DNA of 64,000 nt from Candidatus Methanomethylophilaceae archaeon (GCA_944320495.1 CALUHR010000005.1:32001-96000); one strand, 5' to 3'. Shown: positions 12,376-61,156, counted from the first letter of the stretch. The notes: generated by a model not told the origin, from the sequence alone. Numbers and translations are program-made.

Positions 12376-12821
12376 ACGCCAGGGACGAGTTCAGGAACCT
12401 CATGCTCTCCATGAAGATGCTCGAGGGAGGGTTCACCGAGGGCGACGGCATCTCCGAGATGTCGTACAAGAGCTCGATCTACCTCGACCTCATCGCCCTC
12501 GGGGGCGAGATGAACGTCTCGTCCCTCGCCGGGATCATGAGGGTGTCCCCGTCGGCGGTGACCAGGAGGCTGAACATCCTCGAGGATCTGGGACTTGTGG
12601 TCCGCAGGAGGAGCGAGGGCGATTCCAGGTTCAAGACCGTGTCCCTCTCGGAGCGCGGGGAGGAGGTCCTGGGGGAGTGGAACGACGCCATAGACTCGCC
12701 CTGGGGCGACCTGCGCGACGAGTTCTCCGACGAGGAGATCGACCTCTTCTGCAGGATGCTCAGAAGAGCGTCCGAGAGATACGCCGGATACTGGGACTCC
12801 CGCTCCGGAGAGGAAGACCGA
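12372..12821 (+). CDS. MarR-family transcriptional regulator (149 aa, ends at CGA)
   Basis: ATGA overlap with the upstream MFS; HTH text SPSAVTRRLNILEDLGLVVRRRSEGDSRFKTVSLSERG. First in-frame CGA at 12819-12821 overlaps the next ATG (CGATG). Standard-code end would be 12839. Confidence 0.85.
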
Positions 12822-14227
12822 TGGCGGACGACGTGCTGACGGACAGGAGGAGCCAGATACTGCTCCTCTCGGTGGCCGCCGTCGCCCTCTTCCTCGACGG
12901 TCTGGACGGGACCATCGTCAACGTGGTCCTGCCGGACATGGCGGGGGACTTCGGCACCGACACCTCCGCGACCTCGTGGGTGGTGACCGCCTACTACGTG
13001 ATGATGGCCGGGCTGATCCTGATATTCGGGAAGGTCTGCGACGCGGGCGCCCTGAAGAGGGTGTTCACGGTCGGACTGGTGGTGTTCGCCGTCGGCTCGC
13101 TCGCCTGCGGGCTCTCCGCGACCCTGCCGGTCATGCTCGTGTCCAGGGTGGTCCAGGGGATCGGCGCCGCCATGCTGGCGTCCTCGGCGTTCATGGTCGG
13201 GATAAGGTACCTGCCGAAGTCCATGTCGGGATTCGTGCTCTCGGTGAGCGTCCTCGGCATAGCCGTCGGGTCCGCCGCAGGCCCGCTCCTGGGAGCGGTC
13301 CTTGCCGAGTTCAGCTCCTGGCACATGGTGTTCCTCATCAACGTGCCCATAGCCGCCGTCGCTGCGGTCGTCGCCGTGAGGGTCGTGCCTCCGGACGCCG
13401 GATTCTCCGGGAGGGGGTTCGACATCAGGGGCGCGGCGCTGCTGTTCGTCGCCCTGGTCTGCGGCCTCTATGTGCTGGAATCGTCGCCCTCCCACGGGTT
13501 AGACACGGTGTCCGCGGTCTGCACCGCGCTGTTCTTGGTCTGCATATCGCTCTTCGTGGTGACCGAGAGGAGAGCCGCCGACCCCGTGATCAAGCTCCGT
13601 CTCTTCAGGAGCCGCGGGCTGCTGTCCGCCATGTTCCTGCTCACGATCGTGAACATGTGCTACCTGGGCTGCCTCTACCTGCTCCCGTACTACATGTCCA
13701 CCGTCATGGGCCTGGACTCCCTGGGGACCGGGCTGTACCTCGCCATCCCCGCCGTCGCGACGCTCCTGCTGTGCGTCTGGGTGGGCAGGGCGGCGGACAG
13801 GATCGGCAACCGCCCGTTCACCATCGCCGCCTCGGCGCTCATGGTCGCATCCATGGTGGCCTACGTGTTCGCCGACGCCGACCATGTGATGCCGCTGATC
13901 GCCGGCCTCGTGCTCATGGGCGTCATGTGGGGGCTCGGCGGAGGGACGATCTCCAACAGGATGCTGGACAACATGCCGGACGAGGACAGGCCCGCGGGGG
14001 CGTCGATGTCCTCGTTCCTGATCTACCTCGGATGCGCCGCCGGGACCGCCATGTTCGCGGGGCTGTTCGGATTCGGGTCCGGATCCTCCGGGACGGCGAT
14101 CGGGGACTTTGACGCGGCGACCTTCCTGGACGGGTTCGCCCTGGCCTGCATCGCAGGGGCGGTGCTCTCCGCGATAGGTCTGATCCTGTCCGTATCGAGG
14201 GACGAGAGACGCGGCGAATGTGAATAA
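12821..14227 (+). CDS. MFS drug:H+ antiporter (DHA2), paralog of 10972-12375
   Basis: MADDVLTDRRSQ..., FLDGLDGTIVNVVLPDM; the only TAA-terminated gene found. Confidence 0.9.
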   Translation: MADDVLTDRRSQILLLSVAAVALFLDGLDGTIVNVVLPDMAGDFGTDTSATSWVVTAYYVMMAGLILIFGKVCDAGALKRVFTVGLVVFAVGSLACGLSATLPVMLVSRVVQGIGAAMLASSAFMVGIRYLPKSMSGFVLSVSVLGIAVGSAAGPLLGAVLAEFSSWHMVFLINVPIAAVAAVVAVRVVPPDAGFSGRGFDIRGAALLFVALVCGLYVLESSPSHGLDTVSAVCTALFLVCISLFVVTERRAADPVIKLRLFRSRGLLSAMFLLTIVNMCYLGCLYLLPYYMSTVMGLDSLGTGLYLAIPAVATLLLCVWVGRAADRIGNRPFTIAASALMVASMVAYVFADADHVMPLIAGLVLMGVMWGLGGGTISNRMLDNMPDEDRPAGASMSSFLIYLGCAAGTAMFAGLFGFGSGSSGTAIGDFDAATFLDGFALACIAGAVLSAIGLILSVSRDERRGECE

Positions 14228-14250
14228 GCGAAGGATGCCATCAGGGTCGC

Positions 14251-14664
14251 ATGAGGATGGAGAACGACCCCGGACTGAGGGGTATGTACCAGGCCCTGAG
14301 GAGATACGATGTCGGCGTGCTGAGGACGGTCTCGGCCAGGAAGGCCCTGAAGATCGCCGCCCTGGACGCGTCCCTGGCAGGATCCGAGCCGGACAGGAAC
14401 AAGAGGCTGCTGCGCACGTACCTGGACGAGGACCGCATCGCCTACGAGACGGTGGCGTACGTCCTGTCCCTGCCCGAGGAGGGGTTCGAGGAGGCGATAG
14501 CCGAGATCGGACCCGCCATGAGGCCGGAGTACACAGACATACCGCGCTCGGTAATGGACTCCTACAGGCGCGGGCTCACGGACCTCGAGCTCAGGATGGA
14601 GCAGAAGGCCGCCGAGTATGCCGACGACGTGATAGGCATCGTGAGCGGCCACTGCGAGTACCGA
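14251..14664 (+). CDS. Hypothetical protein (137 aa, ends at CGA)
   Basis: Coding-like codon usage up to GAG TAC CGA (14662-14664), 4 bp from the convergent stop at 14669. Standard-code ORF would run about 280 bp into cbiO. Confidence 0.65.
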
Positions 14665-14668
14665 CGGC

Positions 14669-15811
14669 TCACAGGACCTTCGTCTCGACGACGGTCCCGA
14701 AGTCCTCCAGCCTGCGGATCTTGGACGCCACGATGTCGACGCAGCCCTCGTCGCACAGCAGCACGACGTCGCGGCCCATCAGACACTGGGACATGCACGA
14801 TTCGAACCCGTCGAACACGTAGTCCACGGGGACGCCGCTGTCCGGCAGGAGACGGCGGCAGGTGGTCCCGTAGAGCCCCAGCCTTATCTCGGTCCCTCCG
14901 AGCCATGAGACGGCGGAGTCGACCATGGAGGGGGACATGGCGTCCCTGACGGGAAGTATGACAAACCTCCCCTTGGGGCCGGACGCCATCTTCGACACGA
15001 GCTGCGTCTCGGTCCTCGGGAAGGGCACCTCCGGCAGCCCGCGCATGTCGCACAGGCTCTTGTTGATCAGGAACATCGACGGCTGGATCAGCCCGGTGAG
15101 GTAGACCTGCACCGGGTCGGAGTAGAAGCCCTCGGACTCGCCCGAGTAGATCAGACGGCCCTTCCTGAGTACATGTATCTCGTCCGCCCACGCGTACGCG
15201 AGGTCGACGTCGTGTGTGGAGATCACCACGGTGGTGCCCGAGTGGTGCAGCTGCTCGGCGAGCTCCATGAGTTCCAGGGACATCTGCGGGTCCAGACCGG
15301 CGGTGGGCTCGTCCATAACTAGGACCTCCGGCTCCATGGCGATGGCGCCGGCTATCGAGAGCCTCTTCCTCTGACCGTAGGAGAGCTTCATGGTGTTCCT
15401 GTCCCTCATGCCGGACATGCCGACCAGGGCCAGGGCGCGCTCCACCCTCGCCTCGACCTCCCTCTCGTCCAGACCGAGGTTGCGGGGCCCGTAGGCGACG
15501 TCGTCTTCCACGGTCTGCCCGAAGATCTGGTCGTCGGGGTTCTGAAGGACCACGGCGACCCTGGACCTCAGCTCCCTGAGGCCTCTGCGCCTGTACCCGA
15601 CCGGCTGCCCGTCGAAGAGGACGCGGCCGGAGCTCGGCCTGAACAGGCCGTTGAAATGGTAGAACAGCGTGGACTTCCCGGCACCGTTGGCTCCGAGGAT
15701 GACAGTCCTGACGCCCCTGCCTATCCTGAGGGAAACGCCGTCAAGCGAGGGGCTGTCGTTGCCCGAGTATCTGAATGTCAGGTCCTGCGTCTCTATGATC
15801 GGATCGCCCAT
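14669..15811 (-). CDS. cbiO: ECF transporter ATPase (CbiO-like) with C-terminal extension
   Basis: GANGAGKST, QNPDDQIF, LSYGQRKRLSIAG, DEPTAGLDP; start coupled by TGATG. Confidence 0.85.
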   Translation of the reverse strand: MGDPIIETQDLTFRYSGNDSPSLDGVSLRIGRGVRTVILGANGAGKSTLFYHFNGLFRPSSGRVLFDGQPVGYRRRGLRELRSRVAVVLQNPDDQIFGQTVEDDVAYGPRNLGLDEREVEARVERALALVGMSGMRDRNTMKLSYGQRKRLSIAGAIAMEPEVLVMDEPTAGLDPQMSLELMELAEQLHHSGTTVVISTHDVDLAYAWADEIHVLRKGRLIYSGESEGFYSDPVQVYLTGLIQPSMFLINKSLCDMRGLPEVPFPRTETQLVSKMASGPKGRFVILPVRDAMSPSMVDSAVSWLGGTEIRLGLYGTTCRRLLPDSGVPVDYVFDGFESCMSQCLMGRDVVLLCDEGCVDIVASKIRRLEDFGTVVETKVL

Positions 15812-16929: not shown

Positions 16930-16933
16930 GATC

Positions 16934-17779: not shown

Positions 17780-17785
17780 CCGAGA

Positions 17786-18829: not shown

Positions 18830-18906
18830 GTTGGATCACCAGTGTGATTGGACCCCTCCCGGTCCCGGGACAGGTCGGACCGCGGTCATACCGCTACCAA
18901 TAGGAA

Positions 18907-18923
18907 TTGGATGATGTAACCAA
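18907..18923. promoter_or_regulatory. TTGGAT-N5-ATCCAA operator copy (cbiM upstream)
   Basis: TTGGATGATGTAACCAA. Confidence 0.7.
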
Positions 18924-18938
18924 CTCGTTCTATTTAGA

Positions 18939-20461: not shown

Positions 20462-20462
20462 G

Positions 20463-25339: not shown

Positions 25340-25963
25340 ATGCTGGGAAAGGACATCGTCATCGACCGCGAGAAGTGCGACGGGTGCGGACTGTGCGTCC
25401 AGGCGTGCCACGAGGGCGCCCTGGCCATCGTCGACGGCAAGGCCGCTCTCGTCAGGAAGGACTTCTGCGACGGGCTGGGGGACTGCCTGCCGGCCTGCCC
25501 CCAGGGTGCGATATCCTTCGCCGACCGCCGGTCATCGAGCACCGAGTGCGGATCCGGGTTCGACTCCGGATACCAGTGGCCCATCCAGCTCGCCCTCGTG
25601 CCCCCGAGATGGGACTTCTACCGCGGCACGATCGTCATCGCGGCGGACTGCACCGCGTTCGTCATGGACCGCTTCAGGTCGGTGATGGCCAGGGGCGACC
25701 CCGTGATCATCGGATGCCCCAAGCTGGACGACCGCGCCAGGTTCGACAAGGTCCTGGCCATCCTGAGGGACAACCCCGTCGACGAGGTCCGCGTCATACG
25801 CATGGAGGTCCCCTGCTGCCGCGCGCTCACAAACATCGTCAGGGCCGCGGCGGAGCAGTGCGGCAGGGATGTTCGCGTGACCGAGACCATAGTCTCCCGC
25901 GGCGGGTCAGTGCTGTCCGCGGAGCCTCCGCAGGCGCCCGCCGGGTTCGTCGGGCTGAGGCGA
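25340..25963 (+). CDS. 4Fe-4S dicluster domain protein (207 aa, ends at CGA)
   Basis: CDGCGLCVQACH...CDGLGDCLPACP, QWPIQL, ADCTAF, GCPKLDD, MEVPCC. First CGA at 25961; standard-code ORF would extend to 26614 over the convergent gene. Confidence 0.8.
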
Positions 25964-25966
25964 TCG

Positions 25967-26587
25967 TCGCCTCTTTACCGCCAGGTACAGGACCCCGGGC
26001 TCCCCCGGGATCGCCCTCGCGTCCATGCCGACGGAATCGAGGAGCGAGAGGATCTCATCGTCGGGGATCATCCTCGCCCCGTAGTCCCTGTTGATCTTCT
26101 CGACGATCTCGTCCCTTCCGGCGCCGAACCTCTCCTCGGCGCCGATGGCGAGGATGCCCCCGGGTGCGAGGACCCTGGCGATCTCGACCAGACCGGCCCT
26201 CAGGTCGGGCCAGAAGAAGTAGGTCTCGATGGCCGTGACCATCGCGAAGGACCCGTCGCCGAAGGGGAGGTCGTCCACCGAAGCCAGTTGGAGGTCGAAC
26301 CTTCTGGAACCCATGAGATTCTCGTTCATCTCGCGGGTGACCGCGAGCGAGTCCTCGGAGATGTCCACGCCCGCAAATCCAGCGTCGGGATACCTTGCGG
26401 AGAGCCTTCTGAGGAATCCGCCCCCGCCGCATCCGACGTCGAGGATGCGGCCGTCGACCGTCGCGGGGAGCCTCTCGAGGCAGAACTCCCAGAGGGGGAC
26501 GTGGTGCTCGTTCATCCTGGCGAGGACCTTCCTGCCGTCCTCGCCGATGGGCTTCCTGCACTGGGATCTGAGATGCTCTTCGGCCAT
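25967..26587 (-). CDS. Class I SAM-dependent methyltransferase (ends at CGA CGA)
   Basis: ILDVGCGGG, GVDIS, LPFGDGSFAMVTAIETYFFWPD, RVLAPGG; ends LYLAVKR-CGA-CGA. Confidence 0.85.
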
Positions 26588-26635
26588 GGAAGAAGGGATG
26601 GCCTGCTGGGATAAGGATTCGATGATTGGTCAGAC

Positions 26636-27568
26636 TCGCTGATCGGCGTCCGGTCCGACGTACCTGGAGCGGAACGACGCCTTCCCGACCTCGTACAGCA
26701 TGAGGTCGTCGGCGACGTACGATTCGGGGAAGATCCCCCTGGCCTCGGCCTCGAGGACGCTCCTGTCGTCGTAGCGGTGGCTCACATGCGTCATGATGAG
26801 ATGCCCGACCCCGGCCTCCCTCGCGAGGCGCGCGGCCTGTGCCGCAGTGGTGTGGTTGTGCTTTCCGGCGTTCTCCGCCTCGGCGTCCATGTAGGTGGCC
26901 TCGTGGATCAGCACGTCCACCCCATGGGCGGCCTCGACGGTGCTGTCCGCCGGTTTCGTATCCCCGGTGTACGCGACGCTGATGCCCGGAACGGGAGGTC
27001 CTATGACCATGTCCGGCGTGATGTCCCTCACCGGCTCACCGCGCTTCAGCCTCGCCATGTCCGGGCCGTCCCTGGCGCCCAGTGCGAGCGCCCTCTCATG
27101 ATCGAGCTTCCCGGGCCTGTCCGGTCCGCGGAGGACGTAGCCTATCGAGAACATGCCATGGTCCGTCCTGAAGCAGGACGCCCCGAAGCCGCAGGCCTGG
27201 AACGTCTCGCCTCCGGACAGCTCCCTCACGTCTATCGGATAGCTCAGCTCGCCCCCGGTGGCCTCCATGGCCGTGTCGATGAGCGCGCGTATGCCGGGCG
27301 GGCCGCATATCAGAAGGGGATCCCTGCGGTCCGACAGGCTCATGGTCTGGAGCAGACCGGGCAGACCGAACACGTGGTCCCCGTGCAGGTGCGTGACGAG
27401 GATCGCGCCTATCTTCATGAACGAATAGGGGGACTCCATCAGCCTGCGCTGGGTCCCCTCGCCGCAGTCGAGGAGGACTATCCCGCGGCCCTCCTTCACT
27501 GCGATGCAGGAAGTCGAACGGTCCTTGGAGGGGACGGCCGCGGACGTCCCCAGGAACAGGATCTCCAT
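26636..27568 (-). CDS. rnz: Ribonuclease Z
   Basis: MEILFLGTSAAVP, DCGEGTQ, THLHGDHVFGL, YTGDT, LIHEATY, HTT, THVSHRY; ends CAG-CGA-GTC-TGA (TGA at 26630). Confidence 0.92.
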
Positions 27569-27780
27569 CGGTAGACCTGGTCGATCTCCCTGTCCTGCTT
27601 GGTCTGCTTCTTGTACTCCTTGTAGTGCTCCTTGCAGAGGTGGACGCTGCGGAGCCCCTGGGACTTGTAGGAGAGACCGCATCTGGAGGCCTGCTTGATG
27701 TTGATCGAGCGCTCCGCGGGCTTGTCGCAGCCAGCGACGTCGCAGACTTCCTCGGCGGTTCCATGCTTTGCCAGTGCCAT
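27568..27780 (-). CDS. Small Zn-finger-like protein (70 aa, ends at CGA)
   Basis: CDVAGC...LCKEHYKEYKK (C,C,C,H). CGA at 27568-27570 overlaps the rnz ATG (CGATG). Confidence 0.7.
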
Positions 27781-28056
27781 GCCACCCGGATAGACCTAAT
27801 CAATAGATAAGGGTGCCAGACGGAACGACGATCTGGCGATGCTTCCGGCTCGAGCCACCATACCGCGTCCCTTCCCCGAGCAGGACCCGACGGGGCCCCG
27901 GAGAAGTGGGGATGGGATGGCTTGGGACTCCGCCATCGCCGCGGTCGCGAAGGCCCCGGCCTGCACGGTCTCGCGCAGGCGAACGGTCTGAAACGGGGGC
28001 ATCCAGGACCCCCTTTCCCCACCGGTGCCTACGAATCCATTTAATCGGACACGCCG

Positions 28057-28725
28057 ATGGCCCCCACCATGACTCTCGTATCCCCGTCCATCCTCTCCGC
28101 AGACTTCTCCAGACTCGGCGACGAGGTCGCCCGTGTGGACCGCTCTGGCGCGGACTGGGTCCATCTGGACGTCATGGACGGGATGTTCGTCCCGAACATC
28201 ACATTCGGACCGCCAGTCATCAAGGCTGTCAGGCCCTGCTCCGACAGGCCCTTCGACGCCCATCTCATGATACAGGACCCGGCGAGGTACATCGACGCCT
28301 TCGCCGACGCGGGATGCGATTCGATCACCGTCCACGTGGAGGCCGACGGGGACGTCAGGGACGCCGTCAGGCGCATCTCCGACCATGGGCTGGGCGTGGG
28401 GATCTCCATCAACCCCGAGACCCCCTTCGAGAGGATCGAGCCGTTCCTCCCCGATGCGGACATCGTCCTCGTCATGACCGTCCATCCCGGGTTCGGGGGC
28501 CAGTCGTTCATCGGGGACTGCGTGCCCAAGATCTCCATGGCAAGGCAGTGGGCCGAGGACCACAACCCCGGGCTGCACGTCTCCGTGGACGGCGGCATCA
28601 ATGACGTCACCGCGCGCACCTGCGTCGAGGCGGGCGCGGACGTGCTCGTGGCCGGATCCTTCCTCTTCAAGAAGGAGGACATGGCGCCCACCATCGAGGC
28701 GTGGCACGGCATGAGGGTGAGGCGA
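28057..28725 (+). CDS. rpe: Ribulose-phosphate 3-epimerase (222 aa, ends at CGA)
   Basis: SPSILSADF, HLDVMDGMFVPNITFG, MTVHPGFGGQSF, VDGGIN, VAGSF; ends AGG-CGA-G-ATG(fen). Confidence 0.92.
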
Positions 28726-28726
28726 G

Positions 28727-29755
28727 ATGGGAGTAAACCTCTCGCCCATCGTGGAGTCGGCGCCGATAGAGCTGTCCGACCTCCGCGGGAAGACCGTCGC
28801 CATCGACGCGTACAACACCATCTTCCAGTTCCTCTCGATCATCAGGCAGCCCGACGGGAAGCCGCTCATGGACGACGACGGAATGGTCACGTCCCATCTC
28901 TCGGGACTGCTGTATAGGACCGCGAATCTGATCGAGAACGGCATCGAGCCGGCGTTCGTCTTCGACGGGAAGCCCAGCGAGCTCAAGGCCGGGACCATCG
29001 AGGAGCGCATCGCCAGGCGCGAGAAGGCCAGGGAGGAGTACGAGCAGGCGCTGAGGGAGGGCGACATGCAGAAGGCGTTCTCCAAGGCGCAGCAGACCTC
29101 CAGGATCACGCCGGACATCCTGTCCACCTCGAAGGAGCTGCTGACGCTGATGGGCATACCCGTGATCCAGGCGCCGAGCGACGGGGAGGCCCAGGGGGCG
29201 TACATGTGCCTCAAGGGCGACGTCCATGCCGCCGCCTCCCAGGACTTCGATTCGATTCTCTTCGGCGCGCCCACGCTGGTGCGCAACATCACCATCTCCG
29301 GCAGGCGCAAGGTCCCCGGCAAGAACCTCTACAAGACCGTCCAGCCCGAGATCATAGACACCGGGAGGATGCTCTCGGACCTCGGGGTCACGAGGGAGCA
29401 GCTGGTGGACGTCTGCATCATGATCGGCACCGACTTCAACCCCGGGGTGTCCGGCATCGGGCCGAAGAAGGGATTGAAGCTGATCCAGCAGTACGGCGAC
29501 CTGGAGCACGTGATCGCCGCCAAGGGCTACGACATCCCCGGCTACGAGGAGGTCCGCGAGATCTTCCTGGACGGGCCCAAATCGGACGATTACTCGGTGA
29601 AGCCCGGCCAGGTGGACGCCGACGGAGTGCTGGCCATGATGTCCTCCCACGGGTTCTCGGAGGATCGCGTCAGGACGGTGCTAGGCAAAATGACTGCCGC
29701 CCGCAAGGCGGAGTCTGACAGAAGGAAGCAGAGGTCTCTGGACAGCTGGTTCCGA
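28727..29755 (+). CDS. fen: Flap endonuclease 1 (342 aa, ends at CGA)
   Basis: MGVNLS, AIDAYNTIFQFL, FVFDGKP, APSDGEAQ, SQDFD, GTDFNPG; the C-terminal PIP box KQRSLDSWF is followed directly by CGA. Confidence 0.95.
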
Positions 29756-30427
29756 TCGCGCCCTCACGGCCAGCCTCACCAGGTCATGCCCCTGGGAGAA
29801 CAGCCTGCAGTAGACGTCCCTGCACCTCTTGTAAGACCGGAAGGTCCTCTCGGCGGCCTCTACGTCGCCGTACACCTTCCAGCATCCGATGCAGCGGCAG
29901 CACCTGCCCTCGTTCTCGATGTACCCGCGGACGTCCTCCATGGGATAGTCCAGGAACACGCCGACCTCAGGGGGCATCCTGGGACAGAGCACGAACCTGC
30001 GGCAGAGCTGGTCCACCATGTGCTCCGCGTTCCCGCTGTCGTAGCCGTAGTCCTCGAGGAAGGACATGACCTCGCGGTCTGCGATCCTCGCGCAGAGCAT
30101 CGACGGGCGGTACACGTACACGAGCGAGCCCTCGCCGTCGAAGCTTATGATGCGCACGCGGACGCCGCGGTCGCGGAGCATGCCCTCGATCTCCCTGGTC
30201 TGATGGAGAATACCATGGGGGTCGGACTCCACCCTGAACATGCTTCCGCACTTCAGGCCCGCCAAGGTCGGCGAACAGTGGCGGACGACGCGCTCGCGCA
30301 GGTCGGGAACGGAGGTTCCCACCCGTCCGGGGCATGTCTCTAATATTGGACGGGCTGGCTCATGGATCTCTGCTATGTCGGAAAGTCCCTTCCCGCAGAC
30401 CGAGTCGCCGTGTATGTCCGACCTCAT
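29756..30427 (-). CDS. DUF3793-family protein (ends at CGA)
   Basis: HCSPTLAGLKCGSMF, VYVYRP, PPEVGVFLDYPMEDVRGYI, GCWKVY; ends LVRLAVRA-CGA abutting fen. The start is uncertain. Confidence 0.8.
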
Positions 30428-31237: not shown

Positions 31238-31938
31238 ACGGGATGAACGACAGGACCGGGCTGATACTCGGAGAGGATGGACTCGAGAGGCTGAGGGACG
31301 CGCATGTCGTCCTCGCGGGTGCCGGAGCCGTCGGAGGATACGCGCTGGAGGGGCTCGTCAGGGCCGGCGTCGGGCACATCCGCGTGGTGGACGCCGACGT
31401 GTTCTCTGAGAGCAACCTCAACCGCCAGATCCTCGCCACCGTTGACACCATCGGGAGGCCCAAGTCGGAGGTGGCCTGCGAGCGCGCCAGGTCGATCAAT
31501 CCCGATGTGGACATCGAGGGGCTCCCGCTACTGGTCTCCGAGGAGACGATCCCCGAGATCCTGGATGGCTGCGAGGTCCTCGTGGACGCCATCGACACCG
31601 TCCGCCACAAGACGGCGCTCATACGCGCCGCGGTGGAGATGGGGATCCACGTCTACTCGTCGATGGGCGCGGCGCTGCACACCGACCCGCTGGCGGTGCG
31701 CATCGACACGCTGAAGAGGACGTCCGTGTGCCCGGTGGCCTCCGCGGTCAGGAAGGCACTGAGGGACATGGACACGTCCGACGTGACGTGCGTGTACTCG
31801 GTGGAGCCGCCGGTGACAGTCCCCACGGAGAGGGACGGGCACGGGAAGAGCGTGCTCGGCTCCCTGCCCACAATCCCGGCGGTGTTCGGGATGACGCTGG
31901 CGAACTGCGCCGTGATGAGGATCGCCATCGACAGTCGA
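31234..31938 (+). CDS. ThiF/TcdA-family (tRNA threonylcarbamoyladenosine dehydratase-like) protein (ends at CGA)
   Basis: GAGAVGG, VVDADVFSESNLNRQ, GRPKSEV, VDAID, SSMGA, PAVFG. CGA at 31936 is followed by non-coding-like codons (ACG ATA TCT TTC GCT CCA) to TGA at 31965. Confidence 0.85.
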
Positions 31939-45976: not shown

Positions 45977-46525
45977 TCGCACCATGTCGGTCCCGACCAG
46001 CGTCACCTCTGTGACCTCGAACCCGTCCCAGCGGTCGCACTGCCTCACGAACCTGTGGACCAGGGAGTCCCCTCCGATGTAGAAGGTGTCCGTCTCCGTG
46101 CAGCCCTCGCGCTCCCTCCACACGGTGTACACGCTGCAGACGGCCTCGCCGTCGAAGGTGTCCAGCATCGCGTAGCCGGCGCTCCTCTCCGAGAGGCGCT
46201 CCAGCGCGTCGTCGGAGAGTATCAGGGAGCCGGGATCGAACCCCTCGAGGGATTCGTCGGATGGCTCCCCGTCTATGTAGATGTCCAAGGTGAAGCGACC
46301 GTCCGGGCGGACATCGGACACCACGCCGCGGACGGTGTGGCTCTCGACTGACGCGTCCCTCCCCTCGACGGTGCGGGTGACCTCCCACTCGATGTAGGAC
46401 CCCTCGGACACCTCGCAGGATGATGGCGCCTCCAGGGCATCGGTGCCGTATACGATGAGGACGGAGGTCGCGACGGCGAGGACGGAGATCATGATCGCGA
46501 CGGCGGCCCTGCTGACGGGGATCAT
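45977..46525 (-). CDS. Membrane-anchored hypothetical protein (182 aa, ends at CGA)
   Basis: ATGA overlap with the NifK-like gene; N-terminal TM, GSYIEWEV; ends LVGTDMV-CGA. In the standard code it would run through the terminator to a TAG at 45875. Confidence 0.7.
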
Positions 46526-47784
46526 GTGTTCCTCACCCCGTGGAGGATCTCGTCGAGGATGTACATGGCACCCCGGAGGCCGTAGACCGGCCTGGGGATG
46601 ATGTCGTCGATGCCCATCGACGAGTACCCGATCGGGATGCCGGCGCGGCATTCGCCCGCGACCTTCATCGTCAGGGCGGTGATCCCCTCGCATAGAACGA
46701 CGCCGGACGGCACGGGCTCCCTGCCCCACGCCTCCGGGAATCCGATCCTCCCTAGGAACGACCCCAGCTCCTCCGATTCGGTCTCGTCGGCGCCGTCGTC
46801 GACTGCTACCGCGGCGGGAGCCATCGCCAGATAGCCGTACAGCCACTCGGTCAGCGGTCTGATCACGGACGCCGTCCCGGCAGCCGAGAATGTGAGCCCG
46901 CGTATGCGGAGGGCGTTGTAGCGCATGCCGATGAACCTGCGGCGGACCTCCCGCCTGCAGGCATCCACCCTGGCGAGGGCCTTCGACGGGTCCCTGCCGG
47001 TCGCCTCCGCGACCGCCCTGACCCACGCCTCCGTCGCATCGAAGCCGACGGGCGCCCCCTTCGGGGAGCGGATGCTCGACACGCCGCGGGATTCGTACCA
47101 CTCCGTCAGCCCGTAGCACATCTCCGGGCAGACGATGACGTTGAACTCGGAGTCGACGGAGCGGACCATCCCCTCTACTGAGGAGCCTGCGCCGGGGCAG
47201 CAGGCGACCTCCAGACCCATGTCCCCCAGAAGGGAGACCAGCTCGTCCCTGGCGGCCATCCAGTCCTTGTCCATCAGCGACATGCCGAGGAGGTTCACAG
47301 TCCCCTCGCGGACGTCCCTCCTCTCCGGGTCCAGGAATTCCATCACATGTGCCAGCGTGCGCCCGCAGGCCCACGTTGCGGGGACCGAGGCCATGGACTC
47401 GGGGATGTGCATGGCCACGTCCTCCAGCCCGTTCTCCCTGATGGCGCGCCAGTGGTCGTCACCGATAAGGCTGGCGCCGGGCGAGTCTATCACCACCGCG
47501 AGCGCCGGATGCCTGAGCGACACCTCGCCGAGGCCCTCCGCGGACTTGTAGTAGGCGCCGTTGATGAAGTCGTACTCGTCGAGATAGGACGACGGCACCC
47601 TAGGATACCCGTAGTAGTACGGCGCAGAGAAGGACTCCTCGCCGTCCCTCGGAAGCACCGCCGAGGACACCACGGTGTGGCGTATCCTGCAGCCTCCCGG
47701 CCCGTGCAGGAACACCGCCGCATCGGATATCCCTTCGACAGCCATGATCGAACCCGTGAGCCCGTCGGGCAGCTGCCTCATCAT
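46522..47784 (-). CDS. Nitrogenase component-1-like oxidoreductase subunit (NifK/BchZ-like, single conserved Cys)
   Basis: [45 protein letters not shown]. Confidence 0.75.
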   Translation of the reverse strand: MMRQLPDGLTGSIMAVEGISDAAVFLHGPGGCRIRHTVVSSAVLPRDGEESFSAPYYYGYPRVPSSYLDEYDFINGAYYKSAEGLGEVSLRHPALAVVIDSPGASLIGDDHWRAIRENGLEDVAMHIPESMASVPATWACGRTLAHVMEFLDPERRDVREGTVNLLGMSLMDKDWMAARDELVSLLGDMGLEVACCPGAGSSVEGMVRSVDSEFNVIVCPEMCYGLTEWYESRGVSSIRSPKGAPVGFDATEAWVRAVAEATGRDPSKALARVDACRREVRRRFIGMRYNALRIRGLTFSAAGTASVIRPLTEWLYGYLAMAPAAVAVDDGADETESEELGSFLGRIGFPEAWGREPVPSGVVLCEGITALTMKVAGECRAGIPIGYSSMGIDDIIPRPVYGLRGAMYILDEILHGVRNT

Positions 47785-49910
47785 GGCATCCTCCATCCCT
47801 CGACCGCCGGGAGGCGGGAGGTGTTCTCCAGATACCGGATGTAGTCGAACACGGGGCGGTAGCCCACGCCCATCCTGCTGAGCTTGGCGAACGTGGTGCC
47901 CTCCGGAACGGGTCTGGCTATGTCTCCGATGAGGTAGTCTGGCCTCATATCGTGAAGATCCCTCGCGAGGTCCTCCTCCGTGTAGTCCTCTGTGACCTTG
48001 TACCTCGAATCCGCCCTGCCTCCGGCCTTGCGGGGGCTCGGCGCGACCCCGACCCTGAGGATGTCGACGCCCAGATTGTCCAGAGCGTCTATGAGCCAGT
48101 CGGGGTTGGAGCCGATCTTCCAGGCCACGATGACGCGCTTCCCCTCCATCTTCGGGCGGTGCGATTCCAGGAACGCTTCGTACTCCGCTCTGGCACGTTC
48201 GGTTTCTTTCAAGGCCATCTCCTCCCTGCCGGTCCGGCGCCCCATCTCGGACACCCAGTCCAGGTACCCGCGCATGCCCATGGGCATCGGCGCCGGGAAC
48301 GGCTCCCTGCCAGTCCTCTCCGTTATTAGCGACATCGTGCGCCTCGCGGCCCGGGTGTCGCTCATCAGCATGTCGAACTCCGCGCGGCACACCTCCTCAG
48401 GGGGAGCCGGCGAGCCGTCGTCGATGAACCTGCAGTTCACCTTCAATCCGAAGGATGCCAGCATCCTGTCCAGCTCCCGGCGGTGGTCGGGGGACTGTAT
48501 GTCGAAGAACGAGTTGGAAACCAGGTTCACCAGGCCCCTCTCCGGCTCCAGCGAAGGGTCGATGCGGTCCGCGATGGCCTCGGCGGCCATCTCGAAGCCG
48601 TCGTTGTACTCGCCGGCGATGTCTCCGTCCGCAGATACGAGATCTATGCGAACGTCGGGATGTGCCAGACGCGCCGATTGGACGACGGACTGGCAGTCGT
48701 CGCCGATGATCCCGGGCATGCAGGTGGTGACCACGGCCACCTTGCGGTAGCCCTCGGATATCGCGTTCTCCAGGGACCATCTCAGGAACCCGTCGCCGCC
48801 GAATATGGCGGCGGAGTCGTCCATCATCGACGAGCGTATGTCGCAGGTCGGGGGACGGGAGTACAGACCCTGCTCGTAGAGTCCGAGCACGGCCTTGGCG
48901 CGGGTGGTGGCCATGAGGTACGAGCAGGACATGGGGCCGTGGACCACCACGGCCGTGTCACCGAGCCTGGAGAAAGCGGCCACGGCGCCGTAGGCGGCGC
49001 AGGAGCTCATGACCCTGGCATCCTTGATCGATGATCTGCGGCAGGCGCCGCATCCGGTTCGTTGGGGCAGATTACCCGATGAAGGGCGTATCTCCCTGCC
49101 GGCCGCCAGGTCGGAGAGCTGGTCGTCGTCCAGGGGGTGCGGGAAGGACATCACATCCTCGCCGTCGGATGCGACGGCGATGCGGTCCGCAATCCCGCGG
49201 ACCTGGTCCGCTATCGCGCTGTCCGGGTAGAGTTCCATGACCGTGTGGCCCTTCGATTCGGCGTCGGCAAAGAGGCGATCCCTCGGAATGACGGCGATGA
49301 CCTCGGTGCCGGTGGCGCGGGCGAACCTCTCCACGGTCTCCCTCTCCCCCTCCACCCCGCGGCAGTTGAGCACGATGCCCAGCAGTCTGGGCCTCCCGTT
49401 GTCGAAGTTCAGCAGGCCGCGCATGATGTTGTTGGCCGCGTACATCGCCATGAACTCACCGGATGTCACCAGTATGACGGCGTCAGCGTACTCGTTCCTC
49501 AGCGGGACGGCGAACCCTCCGCACACGACGTCCCCGAGGACGTCGTAGATCCTAACGTCCGTGTCGACGGAGTCGGCGCCGAGCCTCTTCAGAGTGTCGA
49601 AGGTTGTGAGGATCCCACGGCCGGCGCATCCTATGCCCGGCTCGGGGCCGCCGGCCTCGGTGCAGAGCACCCCAGCGGTGCCCTCCTCGATCACATCCTC
49701 GAGCCTCCTCCGGCCGATCGGCGTGTCCCTCACGTAGTCGAGGACGGTGCGCTGGGCCCTCCCTCCCAGGAGGAGGCGGGTGGAGTCGTGCTTCGGGTCG
49801 CAGCCGACCTGCATGACCCTCATACCCCTCTCCGCCAGGGCCACGGAGATGTTGGCGGACATCGTCGACTTCCCGATGCCGCCCTTGCCGTACACCGCCA
49901 CTTGGAACAT
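47781..49910 (-). CDS. NifH-like reductase fused to a NifD/E-like component-1 domain
   Basis: [43 protein letters not shown]; then SSCAAYGA, HGPMSC, TTCMPGIIGDD. Confidence 0.88.
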   Translation of the reverse strand: MFQVAVYGKGGIGKSTMSANISVALAERGMRVMQVGCDPKHDSTRLLLGGRAQRTVLDYVRDTPIGRRRLEDVIEEGTAGVLCTEAGGPEPGIGCAGRGILTTFDTLKRLGADSVDTDVRIYDVLGDVVCGGFAVPLRNEYADAVILVTSGEFMAMYAANNIMRGLLNFDNGRPRLLGIVLNCRGVEGERETVERFARATGTEVIAVIPRDRLFADAESKGHTVMELYPDSAIADQVRGIADRIAVASDGEDVMSFPHPLDDDQLSDLAAGREIRPSSGNLPQRTGCGACRRSSIKDARVMSSCAAYGAVAAFSRLGDTAVVVHGPMSCSYLMATTRAKAVLGLYEQGLYSRPPTCDIRSSMMDDSAAIFGGDGFLRWSLENAISEGYRKVAVVTTCMPGIIGDDCQSVVQSARLAHPDVRIDLVSADGDIAGEYNDGFEMAAEAIADRIDPSLEPERGLVNLVSNSFFDIQSPDHRRELDRMLASFGLKVNCRFIDDGSPAPPEEVCRAEFDMLMSDTRAARRTMSLITERTGREPFPAPMPMGMRGYLDWVSEMGRRTGREEMALKETERARAEYEAFLESHRPKMEGKRVIVAWKIGSNPDWLIDALDNLGVDILRVGVAPSPRKAGGRADSRYKVTEDYTEEDLARDLHDMRPDYLIGDIARPVPEGTTFAKLSRMGVGYRPVFDYIRYLENTSRLPAVEGWRMP

Positions 49911-49918
49911 ACATCCAG
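49902..49918. promoter_or_regulatory. TTGGAT-N5-ATCCAA operator copy overlapping the start codon of the NifH-fusion gene
   Basis: TTGGAACATACATCCAG. Confidence 0.55.
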
Positions 49919-50016
49919 GAATAACGGACGGGATGATAACATGTTCGACGGACCGTGCCACCCTTCATGTACGTCCTCGGGATTCCCCTCGCAACATCAC
50001 GGAGAATGTGAGGGAC

Positions 50017-53741: not shown

Positions 53742-53748
53742 TTGAAAC

Positions 53749-54570: not shown

Positions 54571-54613
54571 ATCCCTGTGGATTTTCGCAACGGTTCTAAT
54601 CGCCACCCAGATA

Positions 54614-54630
54614 TTGGATTATACATCCAA
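54614..54630. promoter_or_regulatory. TTGGAT-N5-ATCCAA operator, perfect copy (second NifH-fusion operon)
   Basis: TTGGATTATACATCCAA, 13 bp before the ATG at 54644. Confidence 0.8.
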
Positions 54631-54643
54631 TAGGTGTTCTCCC

Positions 54644-56770
54644 ATGACCAAGGTGGCGATCTACGGCAAAGGCGGGATAGGCAAATCCACGACGGCGTCC
54701 AACATCTCGCTGGCCCTCTCGCGGAAGGGGGCAAGGGTGCTCCAGGTGGGCTGCGACCCCAAGAGCGACTCCACCCGCTCCCTCCTCGGAGGCCGCCCGC
54801 CGGCCACCGTCCTCGGCTACGTCAGAGGAACGCCTCCGCTGGAGAGGAAGCTGGAGGATGTCGTGATGCCGGGAACCAACGGCGTCATGTGCGTCGAGGC
54901 CGGAGGGCCGGAGCCCGGCATAGGATGCGCCGGGCGCGGAATCATCACCACATTCGAGACCCTCTGGAGCCTCGGCATCGACGACCTCGACGCGGACGTC
55001 ACGGTCTTCGACGTCCTCGGCGACGTGGTCTGCGGAGGGTTCGCCGTCCCCCTCCGCAGGGAGAACGCCGACGCCGTGTTCATCGTGACCTCGGGGGAAT
55101 TCATGTCGGTGTACGCGGCGAACAACATCATGAGGGGAATCGTCAACTTCGGGACCGACCGCGGGAGGGTCGCCGGCATCATCCTCAACCGCAGGGGGGT
55201 GGAGGGCGAGGACCGCATCGTCAGGACCCTGTCGGAATGCACCGGGATCCCGATTGTCGCCGATGTGCCCAGATCGGAGCTGTTCAGACGGGCCGAATCC
55301 GGAGCAATGACTGTATCGGAGATGTTCCCGGACTCGCTGGAGGCCTCGATCTACTCGAAGATGGCGGATATGATACTCGGCATCGCGGATGGGACCACGA
55401 GGCTGTACGTCCCGCATCCGCTGGACGACGCCCAGCTCGAAGCCCTGGCCTCCGGCCGCGCCGACATGGGGCCGGGCCGTTTCGCCAGCCGCCGCCCCTG
55501 CTCCGAGAGGGGTTATGTGGGCATCGGCTCCTGCGCCTCCCGCGGGGCTGTCTTCGAAGCCGGGAGGGTCTGCGACATCCCGATCGTGGTCCACGGACCG
55601 GACAGCTGCGGTTACGTCATGTCCCACACCCAGGACGGACACTACCTGGAGGCCCTGGCGTCGAACAGGTTCCTGCGGGCCCATATGCGCAACAACATCT
55701 CCTGCACCGGGATGACCGAGCGGGACTGCATCTTCGGCGGACGGAAGCCGCTGAAGAGGGAGCTGCTCCGCCTCGCATCGGAGGGGCGCCGCACCGCCAT
55801 GGTGGTCACAACCTGCGTCTCCGGTATGATCGGGGACGACGTGGACTCCGTCGTGAGGGAGGTGGAGATGGAGATCCCGGGGATGCGTGTCATCCCGGTG
55901 AAGGCTGACGGGAACCTCACCGGGGAGAGCGAGGAGGGGCGCCTGATGGTCATCGGGGAGTTCATGAACATGATAGAGCCTCATGAGGGGCCAAAAAGGA
56001 ACAGAATCAACATCGTGGACGACACGTTCATGTGGTTCGATTCGGGGAACAACCTGCTGTGGACCGAGAAGCTGCTGAGGATGGTGGGCTCCGAGCCCGG
56101 CGTCCGCCTGTTCGACGACTGCACCCTGGAGGAGCTCCGCTCCTCCGCATCCAGCATCCTTTCGGTACTGGCGGACGATTCGCCAGTGAACGTTCGCATG
56201 GCGAAGATGCTGGAGGCGAAGGGCATGGACGCCCTGCCGGCCCCGCTCCCGCGCGGGTACGGAGAGACCATGGCGTGGATCCCCATGTGCTGCGAGCGTC
56301 TCGGGACCGACCCCGGGCCGGCCCTCGCCAGGGCGGAGTCCGAATACCAGAGCGCGCTGAGAAGGCTCTCGCCGAGACTGTCAGGCAGGAGGGTGGCCGT
56401 CGTGTCGCGTTCGTCCTCCGATCCGGACTGGATGATCGAATGCCTGCAGGACGCGGGCGCGGACGTTGTGTGCTCCGTGTCGTTCCGTGTGGGCGCGGGA
56501 TCCGTGAGGGGGATGCGCTCCAGGTTCGCGGACCACGTCGAATGTAGGAGCGACGTGCCGGTATCGGAACTCGAGATGTTCCTGCTGGACAGGTCCCCGG
56601 ACATCGTGGTCGGACCGGGCAACCTGCTTTCCAATCTGGGAATCAGACACATATCGCCTCCCTCGGAGACGGTGTCGCACAGGGCGTCTGAGGCGTTCCT
56701 TGAGAGGGTGGCGGACGGGCTTGTCCGCAAACCCTCTCCGGGATGGATATCGTGGGGGGAGGAGGCATGA
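54644..56770 (+). CDS. Second NifH-like/NifD-like fusion protein
   Basis: [43 protein letters not shown]; [25 protein letters not shown]. Confidence 0.88.
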
Positions 56771-58008
56771 ACCCGAAGCCCGACGGATTCATCGGAGCGG
56801 TGATGGCCGCGGAGGGGGTCTCCAACATGACCACCCTGCTCCACGGGCCGGACGGATGCAGGAAGAACCTTGCCGCGCTGTCCCGCAGCCTGCTCCCGAA
56901 GGGCGGGAGATGCGACCTCAGCACCCCGTTCTATAGGGGATTCCCGGTGGTCCCGTGCACTGGCATCGGACCGTCCGACTACATCTTCGGTTCCGGAGGG
57001 AGGCTGACCGAGGCGCTCGGGTTCGTGGGCGGAAGGACGGAGGGTCCGGTGGCCGTCGTGTGCTCCCCCGGAGCGTCCCTCATCGGGGACGACTGCTCCA
57101 AGGCGATCGCGGACAGCGGGATGGAGGGCAGGGCCGTCGTCATCGGCGAGGACACGATGTCCAGTCCGCTCTGCGAGGCATACGACGCAGCGATAGAAAG
57201 AATCCTCAGATCGCTTGCGCCCCGGGATGGCGAGACGATCCCGGGGACCGTGAGCCTCGTCGGCCTGAGCGTGCTGACCAAGGACTGGCACACCGTGACC
57301 TCCGAGTTCTCAGCCATGTTCGGCATGATGGGACTCGATGTGCTGGCATCGCCCGGGGCCGGTAGCCCCTCGGAAGACCTGCGCCGGTCGGCTCAGGCCG
57401 AGTTCTGCGTGATCATGTGCCCCGAATACGCTCGTCTCACGTCATCATTCTACAAAGAGCGCGGATCGGAGATTGTTTCGCTGGGCCACGCGCCGGTCGG
57501 CTTCGCGGCGACCAGGGAGCTGATCCTCAAAGTGGCCGACGCCTCCGGCAGAGACCGGTCGGCGGCGCTGGAGTACATCAGGGGATTCGAGAGACGCGCC
57601 CGCACATGCATGCTCACCACACAGGAGAACGTGTCCGGAAGGACCTTCAGGCTGGAGGCCGACGCATCGGTCGCGCTCCCCCTGACCAGATGGCTATGCG
57701 ACGACCTTGGCCTGGTCCCGGCGTCCGTAATCTGCCAGACAGGCCTCAGGGCGGCGGACGAGCTGATCGGATATCTTGATGGGATGGGGCTGGGCGACGT
57801 CTTCGGCGTCCCGCCTCGGTCCGAACCGTATTACGCGTTCTGCGACGGGAACACCGCCCGCCTGGAGGAGCTGTCCGGGGTCTGCCGCAGGGGCGTGGAT
57901 ATCGTGTTCCCGTCGAAGCTCAACACGGACTTCCGCCCGTCGCCTGTGATGGGGCCGTCCGGGGCGATGTACCTGCTGGACCGCGTGGTCAATCCGTTCC
58001 CGAACCGA
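56767..58008 (+). CDS. Second NifK/BchZ-like component-1 subunit (ends at CGA CGA)
   Basis: [45 protein letters not shown]; CGA at 58006 matches the end point of the paralog. Confidence 0.75.
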
Positions 58009-58792: not shown

Positions 58793-58802
58793 GATATCTC
58801 CC

Positions 58803-59867
58803 TCGGTTCCAGACCTTCCTGTGCTGGGTCACGAGTATGTAGATGAACAGAGGACCGCCGATTATGGACGTGATCACTCCCACGGGCAGACCCGTGGCGG
58901 TTATCTCCACGGCGAGGCAGTCCGCGGCGGCGAGGACGAACGCCCCGCACGCCGCCGAGGCGGGGAGCAGATACCTGTTGTCCGAATCGATGAAGATCCT
59001 CATCACATGGGGTGCGACCAGTCCGACGAACCCGATCGTGCCTGTGAAGCAGACCAGGGTGGCAGTGACCAGAGACACCACGGCTATGGTCACCAGGCGG
59101 ACCGTCTTGGGCCTTATGCCGGAGGATACGGCCAGGTTCTCGTCGCAGGAGAGGATGTTCAGCCTGGCGCTGAGCATGGACAGGAGGGCCACCCCCGCCA
59201 GGGTGGCGCATATCAGGTACGGCAGGGTGTCCCAGGAGACGCTCCCCAGGGTCCCCAGGCCCCACATGTAAACGGAGGCGAAGGTCTCCGAGGAGGCCGC
59301 CAGATTCAGCATGGTGGTAAACGACGAGAACACATACATCACGGCGATGCCCACCAGTATCATCGTGGTGGGATTGGAGCTGCTTCTGAATCCGGATGCG
59401 AGCATGATAACCGCCGCCGGGATGAGGGACAGCACGAACGCGTTGCCTATGGACCCCATGCTCCCGGTAAGGAACGGCAATATCACCACGCCGGCCACCG
59501 ACGCGAGGGCGATACCGAAGTTGGCCCCAGACGATATGCCGGTCATGTACGGGTCGGCCAGGGGATTGCGCAGAGCGCTCTGCATGGCGGCGCCGCAGAT
59601 CCCCAGCCCGGCACCGACGAAGAATACCGCCAGCCCCCGGGGAGCGTTCTTCTCCCAGACCACATACTCATCTGTGGCATTGTCTATCGGGACACCCGTC
59701 AGATGGTCGAAGAACACGCGATACGCCTCGCCGAAGCCTATTTCGTAGGGCCCCAGGGCGATCTCCAGCAACGCCGCGACGGCCGCCAGCACGAGCATGA
59801 TGGCGATCACCAGCCTCTTGCGGCGGATACGCCTGCGGTACGACTCCTCGAAACCCTCGAAGCTCAT
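58803..59867 (-). CDS. FecCD/BtuC-type ABC permease (ends at CGA)
   Basis: NPLADPYMTGISSGA, GTIGFVGLVAPH, LPVGVI; ends QHRKVWN-CGA, 10 bp before the ATPase ATG. Confidence 0.85.
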
Positions 59868-61156
59868 CGCTGCCACGCCTCCCTGCGCGTACGCATGACC
59901 AGGAGCAGGAACAGCGGAGCGCCGATGAATGAGAGGACCACGCCGACCGGCATCGTACTCGTGGCCAGGATCCGGCTCAGCACGTCGGCGAGCAGGATCA
60001 GCACCACCCCGAGCATCGCCGAGGCGGGTATCACCAGGCGGGTGTCACTGCCGAGTATGAGGCGCACCATGTGCGGGGCTATCAGACCCAGGAACCCGAT
60101 CATCCCCACGAAGCTGACGATGGATGCTGTCACGAACGATACGATTATGAGGCAGATCATGCGGAAGTTGTCGACGTTCAGGCCCAGGGCCTTGGCGTCA
60201 TTGTCGCCCATCATCAGCAGATTCAGCCTGCCGGACATAGCGTAGAGGGCGACGCACCCGACCAGCGTCACCGTGAACATCATCGGCAGGTACGACCAGG
60301 ACGCCCCGCTCAGAGAGCCCACCTGCCACTCATAGGCCTCCTGCATGGCGTCGTCGTCTGCCACCATCATTATGAGCGTGCTGAACGCCGAGAAGATGTA
60401 CGACACGGCCGTCCCGACCAGGATAATCGTGGCTGGGGACCCGCTGCTGATTCTGGAGACGAATATCATCACGCCCGCGGGAATCAGGCTGAAGAGGAAG
60501 GCGTTCAGCACCAGACCGTACTGCCCGATCCCGACCACGGCGAGACCGAGCACGATCGCTATGTTCGCACCCAGCACCGCCCCGGACGATATGCCGGTGG
60601 TGTACGGGTCGGCCAGGGGATTCTTGAGGACACTCTGCATAACGGCTCCTCCCACGGCCAGCCCCGCCCCGGCGACCATGGCCACGAGGGTCTTCGGGAG
60701 CTGGGAGTTCCAGATCAGGATGTCGTGGAACCAGTCGTCCGACCCGGTCTCGTATACTACCCCGCGGACATGCCCGATGACGAGACCGAACGCCTCCGAC
60801 ACGGACAGACCGCTTATGCCGGCGGTAAGCGAGTATCCCGCCAGGACCACAGCGACCGCAGCCAGGGCGGCGATGAACACCGCCTTCACGGTGTTGCCGG
60901 CGCGGTAGTTCCTGACGAACTGATCCTCGGTCCCGCTCTCTGTGAAGGAACGGATGTATCTAGACACCACCCCGGTCCTGTCCGCGTACACGATGCACGC
61001 GAGCACGATGGCGACGAGGGACACGACCGACGCGGTGGCGCATGCCAACACGACGTCGTCGGCCCCGGACTTGGCTAGGGCGGCGACGGCCAGAGCCCCC
61101 GCTGTCCCGATGACGACCACGGAGGCCACCGCGTTCTGGACTGAGCGGGGGTTCAT
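59867..61156 (-). CDS. FecCD/BtuC-type ABC permease with an extra N-terminal hydrophobic region (ends CGA then TGA)
   Basis: NPLADPYTTGISSGA, GMIGFLGLIAPH; ends REAWQ-CGA-TGA, with the CGA overlapping the next ATG. Confidence 0.85.

Follow-up and report, generated by a model that had tools for sequence, protein, structure and literature searches.

In an archaeon of the family Methanomethylophilaceae, and in part of the genus to which it belongs, the arginine codon CGA is probably a fourth stop codon that is read at the ribosome (a reading given a probability of about 0.8), most likely by a release factor, aRF1, that would accept C as well as U in front of GA and would compete with a weakened tRNA-Arg(UCG). 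The case starts from a 64,000-nucleotide stretch of DNA from a Candidatus Methanomethylophilaceae archaeon (GCA_944320495.1, CALUHR010000005.1:32001-96000), hereafter the window, in which a preliminary description made from the sequence had picked out 14 genes that end on an in-frame CGA. The source assembly (G000) comprises 1.77 Mb in 14 contigs with a guanine-plus-cytosine (GC) content of 62 %, the window corresponding to G000:C5:32001-96000. Within the order Methanomassiliicoccales and the family Methanomethylophilaceae, G000 is placed in the genus Ca. Methanoprimaticola/UBA71 (g1 in what follows), whose members include Ca. Methanoprimaticola hominis Mx06, Ca. Methanoprimaticola sp. MG2 and UBA71, and the window stretch turns up in gut metagenomes of several studies, chicken-gut ones among them. 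The observations presented here are codon statistics, homologous stop positions, DNA evidence, sequence features of the tRNA and of aRF1, and the distribution of CGA among relatives.

Across the whole G000 genome, CGA behaves as a stop codon does. In a continuation test, every codon lying after 60 codons of sense-frame signal (high GC at the third codon position, or GC3, together with GC1 > GC2) was scored for whether the signal persists beyond it. The coding signal persists past CGA in a fraction of 0.039 (n=665), next to 0.058 for TGA (n=1019), 0.085 for TAA (n=117) and 0.109 for TAG (n=129), the corresponding fraction for any sense codon being at least 0.26. When the genome is read with four stops, the ends of its 1733 open reading frames (ORFs) fall on TGA (1134), CGA (466, or 27 %), TAG (72) and TAA (61). 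At the same time, out-of-frame CGA trinucleotides within G000 ORFs number 46,016 (9,812 + 36,204); the depletion of CGA is therefore frame-specific, which indicates decoding at the ribosome. As many as 88 of the 466 CGA ends form CGATG stop/start overlaps, a terminal CGA is followed by T in 48 % of cases and by A in 9 %, and the region downstream of the CGA ends of G000 shows no enrichment of backup stops.

Homologous genes place their stops where G000 has CGA. When G000 ORFs were compared by tblastn with 16 relative genomes, the relative's stop was located within 3 codons of the CGA in 84 % of 142 ortholog pairs, the figure for TGA-ended G000 genes being 89 %. The stops of the relatives opposite G000 CGA ends in the 142-pair set are TGA (108), TAA (23), TAG (6) and CGA (5). 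The gene for FEN-1, whose product ends in ...LDSWF, offers an especially well-populated example, as relative loci have at exactly that position TGA in 43 cases, CGA in nine, TAA in eight and TAG in three, and the CGA cases are from assemblies produced by different groups. The core claim of the preliminary description, namely that CGA behaves as a stop, is strongly supported, the behaviour being a natural, lineage-wide feature.

In G018, a g1 genome with 93 % DNA identity to G000, three of the seven comparable CGA sites of G000 are TGA, and the other four are CGA in both genomes. Exchange between CGA and TGA in this pair is fast, resembling that at synonymous sites (window 25961-26638 compared with L002/L011).

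Independently obtained DNA contains the same codons. Logan contigs from run X1 match 19.3 kb of the window, and the two differences reported (A>G and C>A) are such that neither could convert a CGA site to TGA; additionally, a contig from X3, which belongs to a different study, is identical across position 28723. An in-silico alteration or an assembly artefact, considered as a source of the CGA ends, is ruled out by these independent contigs along with the interchange of CGA and TGA across many assemblies. The earlier view that sequencing error is disfavoured is likewise reinforced by the presence of the same CGA sites in independent metagenome contigs and of the same pattern in dozens of assemblies.

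Within the window, all 14 sites previously picked out are indeed in-frame CGA codons at gene ends (appearing as TCG on the plus strand where the gene is on the minus strand), and two further CGA ends are recognized, one at 49059-49061 (-) and the other, tentatively, at 8337-8339 (-) (Table 1). With four stops, the ORFs of the window tile tightly, as in the run 10972-12375, 12372-12821, 12821-14227 and 14251-14664; as had been remarked, genes called with translation table 11, where CGA is Arg, extend hundreds of bases into their neighbours. The Pfam domains of CGA-ended ORFs are complete up to the ORF end, with matches covering positions 2-198 of 198 for Ribul_P_3_epim, 2-166 of 167 for DUF3793, 3-397 of 399 for Oxidored_nitro and 3-311 of 311 for FecCD; two FecCD permeases and a NifH-family protein are among the ORFs whose domains are complete in this way. 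The reported lack of internal CGA also stands, in that cobN (1246 codons) and other long genes have zero in-frame CGA. One entry among the genes first described needs correction, however, since the supposed NifH fusion is a product of reading CGA as Arg; it is really two genes, and the CGA at 49059-49061 that splits them is codon 301 when the ORF is called with table 11 (window 47781-49961, minus strand).

The scarcity of CGA inside genes follows a gradient among relatives, for which codons were counted in homology-aligned segments of 34-105 kb each from 25 genomes. Sense CGA per 1000 aligned codons amounts to 1.0-4.7 in the other families of the order and to 4.1 in genus g20 of the same family, about 1.1 in g11, g12 and g18, 0.2-0.3 in g15 and g23, 0.04 in g17 (which we take to be the genus of Ca. 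M. alvus), 0 in g16, and 0-0.22 in the 13 genomes of g1. The absence of internal CGA first noticed in the window is thus matched at aligned positions throughout the 13 g1 genomes, where sense CGA is near zero: 12 of the 13 have 0-3 homology-aligned CGA per 8,000-26,000 codons, and G018 has 6 in 26,742 aligned codons, 2 of them opposite Arg. Neither GGA nor CCA is depleted in the sampled relatives, which speaks against a general avoidance of A-ending codons.

CGA gene ends, for their part, occur only in g1, barring five ambiguous cases in three genomes in which a standard stop follows within <=10 codons. Their share of gene ends is 47 % in G010 (16/34) and 27 % in G000, and then declines through G018 (9/78), G004 (7/80), G143 (3/65), G013 (2/50), G144 (2/75), G072 (2/70), G166 (1/72) and G151 (1/57) to none in G008, G015, G012 and G154. 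GC content alone was tried as a predictor of CGA-stop use and rejected, because G154 has a GC content of 0.62 and 0/49 such ends and G010 has a GC content of 0.63 and 16/34. The series as a whole has the shape of codon capture, with CGA vanishing first and then reappearing with a new meaning in one genus.

Loss of tRNA-Arg(UCG), one of the mechanisms initially proposed, does not apply, for the gene is present in G000 and in every complete relative tested. In G000 it is detected by ARAGORN, with A20 and C35 intact, and a covariance model built in this analysis finds it in 5/5 complete genomes tested; the same model overturned an apparent absence from some genomes, including G008 and G015, that had been based on BLAST and simple DNA patterns. 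Outside g1, the tRNA from 14/14 genomes of 10 genera has positions 31 and 39 paired and the loop CUUCGGA (CUUCGAA in two). Within g1, positions 31 and 39 are mismatched in 24/26 genomes (as C·A, A·A or U·C), and in these same genomes the pairs 27-30/40-43 are preserved via compensatory changes, an indication that the gene is maintained. The remaining two g1 genomes (G008 and G015) carry C33 instead, U33 being near-universal in tRNAs, and the tRNAs of G000 and G018 additionally have U32 and C38. An abnormal anticodon arm is therefore found in 26/26 g1 genomes and 0/14 others, and these sequence changes probably weaken the decoding of CGA by tRNA-Arg(UCG) in g1.

The gene for aRF1 is where CGA has been kept as a sense codon. 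G000 has one aRF1 gene (G000:C2:85933-87165, minus strand; L082:679-1911:-) and one Pelota gene (G000:C1, L081), the latter itself ending on CGA. The G000 aRF1 ORF has a single in-frame CGA, at codon 78, which is aligned with the conserved Arg81 of human eRF1 and lies in the context GCU CGA CUC. Codon 78 is CGA in 13/13 g1 genomes, the next codon always being CUN (+4 base C), and the ORF is continuous through the CGA, with no programmed frameshift. In other genera, the aRF1 gene has CGA at a different arginine, i.e. at Arg25 in g17 (9/9 genomes), at Arg11 in g23 and g16, and at Arg50 or Arg9 in g24. Elsewhere in these genera, sense CGA has a frequency of about one in 5,000-25,000 codons or lower, so that 0.02-0.1 would be expected in a 410-codon gene at the background rate, and the occurrence of CGA in every aRF1, at a position that shifts between genera, points to selection for CGA there. 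The simplest reading would be a feedback loop in which abundant aRF1 stops its own synthesis and scarce aRF1 permits read-through by the tRNA.

Two residues of aRF1 are candidate determinants of CGA recognition. Throughout the order, the aRF1 motif Y-R-C-D-S-x-F has, by alignment, Arg at the position of L123 in yeast eRF1; the yeast changes L123R/F/Y are UGA-biased and raise termination at CGA, a codon that the wild-type factor already reads as a stop to some extent (PMC7379694). The second position is the equivalent of Arg68, which is Arg in the aRF1 of Halobacterium and Aeropyrum, in human eRF1, in families f2-f6 and in genus g20, but is Met in the 14 other genera examined of the family, Lys in g27, and Gln or Asn in family f7. 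Where the Arg68-equivalent is kept (G096, G097 and G041), the share of CGA among CGN codons is 13-28 %, and where it is lost the share is 0-9 %. In free-energy simulations of human eRF1, the predicted role of Arg68 is to keep the NIKS loop in position, and in a simulated R68A variant the penalty for C at the first position is predicted to drop from about 6 to 1-2 kcal/mol (PMC5681627). By analogy, the Arg68-equivalent would be expected to impose a choice of U against C as the first base of a stop codon, and its loss, which tracks CGA depletion, is offered as a lead. A further candidate, a G-to-S change in the GTS loop of the aRF1 of G000 and G018, is not a requirement, as G010, with 47 % CGA ends, has GTE.

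These features can be arranged into a possible sequence of events. It would begin with the Arg that the whole order has at the x of the aRF1 YxCxxxF motif, a change that in yeast eRF1 is UGA-biased and increases termination at CGA. Most of the family would then have lost the Arg68-equivalent, after which sense CGA would have been purged, to about zero in several genera. Each aRF1 gene would have kept one CGA at a conserved Arg, in a context with C following, and the kept codon would create negative feedback between the level of aRF1 and read-through by tRNA-Arg(UCG). Lastly, in g1, the anticodon arm of the tRNA would have turned abnormal, and TGA-to-CGA changes would have spread in some species. 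Three elements of this account are inferred from the sequences: the reading of CGA by aRF1, the weakening of the tRNA and the autoregulation of aRF1. The fullest form of the proposal, i.e. a four-stop code (UAA, UGA and CGA, with UAG given over largely to pyrrolysine) in a free-living archaeal lineage, arising when an aRF1 with the UGA-biased Y-R-C motif lost its Arg68-equivalent and thereby the discrimination between U and C at the first base, with aRF1 regulating itself via a conserved CGA read by a deliberately weakened tRNA-Arg(UCG), is put forward tentatively, with its chances set a little below even.

A number of points weigh against CGA being a fourth stop that is read by aRF1. All of the data are at the DNA level, the gene calls come from our own ORF and GC-pattern heuristics, and the relatives are partial genome samples that are not independent of one another. 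The residue equivalences between aRF1 and eRF1 derive from alignment, and the effects cited are those of yeast and human eRF1 and not of aRF1. Met is also present at the Arg68 position in genera with some sense CGA (about 1 per 1000 codons), and the correlation involving this residue comprises two or three independent losses only. Inspection of the aRF1 motifs, as suggested in the preliminary description, finds NIKS, GTS-like and YxCxxxF the same in species with 0 % and 47 % CGA ends, meaning that the aRF1 sequence alone leaves the level of CGA use unexplained. Finally, since tRNA-Arg(UCG) is retained and apparently chargeable (A20, C35), CGA may be an ambiguous or leaky codon and not a clean stop.

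A different process would be one in which CGA is effectively unassigned and ribosomes, stalled for want of a competent tRNA-Arg(UCG), are rescued by aPelota/ABCE1 and peptidyl-tRNA hydrolase instead of being released by aRF1. The abnormal anticodon arm of the tRNA in every g1 genome examined, the presence of a Pelota gene and the lack of any aRF1 change that divides species with many CGA ends from those with zero would all be in keeping with rescue. On the other hand, rescue would be implausibly costly as the means of ending 27-47 % of genes, FEN-1 and Pelota included, it gives no reason for the conserved sense CGA to be in the aRF1 gene in particular, and the CGATG stop/start coupling resembles TGATG coupling. 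Rescue is thus considered unlikely.

Still less probable is site-specific C-to-U editing of mRNA, an option raised in the preliminary description, whereby the terminal CGA would become UGA. Although a single transition makes CGA a standard stop and the two codons alternate between relatives, editing is disfavoured by the strictly frame-specific depletion of CGA, in that an enzyme cannot see the reading frame and yet the 46,016 out-of-frame copies persist inside ORFs. Nor does editing account for the purge of sense CGA from genera lacking CGA ends, or for the CGA kept as Arg in aRF1. Among the pieces listed for RNA runs X16 and X17, none lies over a CGA site, and these runs are neutral on editing; we know of no case of stop-creating C-to-U editing in archaea. 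That CGA is simply Arg, giving proteins with long C-terminal tails, or that the pattern arose as an artefact of the assembly, of the consensus or of in-silico changes, scarcely deserves credence. The presence of tRNA-Arg(UCG) agrees with an arginine meaning, but the coding signal collapses after CGA exactly as it does after TGA, tails of this kind would run hundreds of bases into the neighbouring genes, the homologs have standard stops after the same residue, and the same pattern recurs in independent runs and in dozens of assemblies from different projects. Termination at CGA by aRF1, in competition with a weakened tRNA, is hence the reading that is preferred.

Table 1. CGA gene ends in the window, with the divergent aRF1-like genes of family f3 (positions are those of the window unless a genome and contig are given)
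Feature	Position	Strand	Remarks
Tentative CGA end, small ORF 8337-8672 (111 aa, no Pfam match)	8337..8339	-	
CGA end, MarR-family regulator ORF 12372-12821	12819..12821	+	A of CGA is the A of the next ATG (CGATG overlap)
CGA end, ORF 14251-14664 (137 aa, no Pfam match)	14662..14664	+	X1 contig identical over 13528-15068
CGA end, 4Fe-4S ferredoxin-domain ORF 25340-25963	25961..25963	+	TGA in 93%-identical G018
CGA end, methyltransferase ORF 25967-26587	25967..25969	-	TCG on +; TGA in G018
CGA end, metallo-beta-lactamase/RNase Z-like ORF 26636-27568	26636..26638	-	TGA in G018 and other relatives
CGA end, ORF 27568-28022 (150 aa, no Pfam match)	27568..27570	-	CGATG overlap with downstream gene start; TGATG in relatives
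CGA end, ribulose-phosphate 3-epimerase gene 28057-28725	28723..28725	+	X1 and X3 contigs identical here
CGA end, FEN-1 gene 28727-29755	29753..29755	+	Directly after C-terminal ...LDSWF
CGA end, convergent DUF3793 gene 29756-30427	29756..29758	-	Relatives at offset 0: TGA 19, CGA 6, TAA 1 loci
CGA end, ThiF-family gene 31234-31938	31936..31938	+	
CGA end, ORF 45977-46525 (182 aa, no Pfam match)	45977..45979	-	
CGA end, NifH/frxC-family gene 49059-49961	49059..49061	-	Read as Arg, gives fusion with downstream gene
CGA end, nitrogenase-component-1-type oxidoreductase gene 56743-58008	58006..58008	+	
CGA end, FecCD permease gene 58803-59876	58803..58805	-	
CGA end, FecCD permease gene 59867-61156	59867..59869	-	
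Divergent aRF1-like gene with TAG	G116:C47:15586-16497		Family f3
Divergent aRF1-like gene with TAG	G127:C15:78-989		Family f3
Divergent aRF1-like gene with TAG	G123:C1:374153-375064		Family f3

Several side observations concern other codons and release factors. A sense meaning for TAG, amounting to a swap of roles between CGA and TAG, was hinted at by a first test of GC3 drop and was gone once the sense-frame filter was applied; the false signal came from the antisense frame, whose GC3 is high and in which a sense NNC-TAN appears as TAG. Genes of the window contain no in-frame TAG, nor does the window have a convincing TAG stop, and many of the 72 TAG-ended ORFs of G000 (4 % of the total; median length 145 aa) are probably spurious. 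This scarcity of TAG is compatible with a pyrrolysine-using lineage. A second aRF1-like gene, divergent (36-38 % identity) and containing a single in-frame TAG, is present in three family f3 genomes (Table 1), and similar divergent copies without the TAG are present in G107 (f3) and G124 (f7); the TAG-containing gene may be linked to pyrrolysine decoding. Separately, CAA among Gln codons is much rarer than GAA among Glu codons or AAA among Lys codons in G012, G037, G065, G024 and most g1 genomes, the single CAA of G012, for instance, making up 0.5 % of Gln codons where the shares of GAA and AAA are 41 % and 51 %. The scarcity of CAA is seen mostly in genomes whose aRF1 is without the Arg68-equivalent, and it could represent partial avoidance of CAA as a UAA look-alike or ordinary codon preference.

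A search of the full-text literature found no description of CGA as a stop in the Methanomassiliicoccales, and, to our knowledge, sense-to-stop changes have been recognized only in a few mitochondria. If true, the present case would be the first sense-to-stop change in a cellular genome, and it would be located in a gut methanogen genus that includes human-associated species. Since a single family exhibits all stages, from normal CGA use through purge to stop use, both the evolutionary route and the determinants by which eRF1/aRF1 recognize the initial base of a stop codon become directly testable. There is also a practical consequence, in that a quarter to a half of the genes of these genomes come out of standard gene callers fused or too long, as the NifH fusion illustrates, and the public protein sets for the genus are as a result partly wrong, probably with many such false fusions. 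A new type of feedback on a release factor is suggested by the CGA kept in aRF1, and codon and stop engineering has a natural example in this lineage. New in this analysis are the family-wide gradient of sense CGA, the per-species share of CGA ends and the genus-wide character of the tRNA anticodon arm, along with the aRF1 CGA of other genera and the leads concerning Arg68 and Y-R-C.

Among known systems, the closest in outcome are the organellar codes in which a sense codon became a stop, i.e. AGA/AGG in vertebrate mitochondria (table 2), UCA in Scenedesmus mitochondria (table 22) and UUA in Thraustochytrium mitochondria (table 23). The likeness is that a sense codon leaves coding positions and appears at gene ends, the vertebrate codons having also been arginine codons. 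However, organelles have tiny genomes and reduced tRNA sets, whereas the present organism is a free-living archaeon whose genome has about 1.8 Mb and whose set of tRNAs is full, and, unlike in the organellar codes, the gene for the cognate tRNA is still there and the release-factor gene keeps one copy of the codon as Arg. For that kept codon, the apparent parallel is bacterial RF2 (prfB), which is autoregulated via an in-frame UGA and a +1 frameshift. In both situations, the release-factor ORF carries an early codon that its own product would read as a stop; yet prfB requires a +1 frameshift, whereas here the frame is unbroken and it is a cognate tRNA that would read through, at a conserved Arg. 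As for how a codon comes to change meaning, the concept of codon capture by way of unassigned-codon intermediates is that of Osawa and Jukes, and the resemblance is that an arginine CGN codon became very rare before acquiring a new meaning, the intermediates being seen in related genera. Bacterial reassignments of CGA/CGG are known, and the Codetta survey is without an archaeal CGA change (PMC8629427); the bacterial cases involve low-GC genomes and an amino-acid meaning, in contrast to the GC contents of 44-66 % and the stop meaning encountered here. In two hydrothermal-vent archaeal assemblies in which CGG encodes Trp, CGA is absent from recognisable domains and a stop meaning was speculated (Melnykov 2026, bioRxiv 10.64898/2026.04.02.715157). 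Those assemblies are from another habitat, tRNA-Arg(UCG) was not found in them, and that report is without evidence from stop positions and leaves methanogens unmentioned, whereas in the present work stop positions are established by homology. In yeast, finally, misdecoding of CGA by eRF1/eRF3 is enhanced by L123R/F/Y (Wada & Ito 2018, PMC7379694), and R is the residue that the aRF1 of this order has there; but in yeast CGA is a poorly decoded codon and termination at it a minor side reaction, whereas in these archaea it is apparently the normal end for a quarter to a half of genes.

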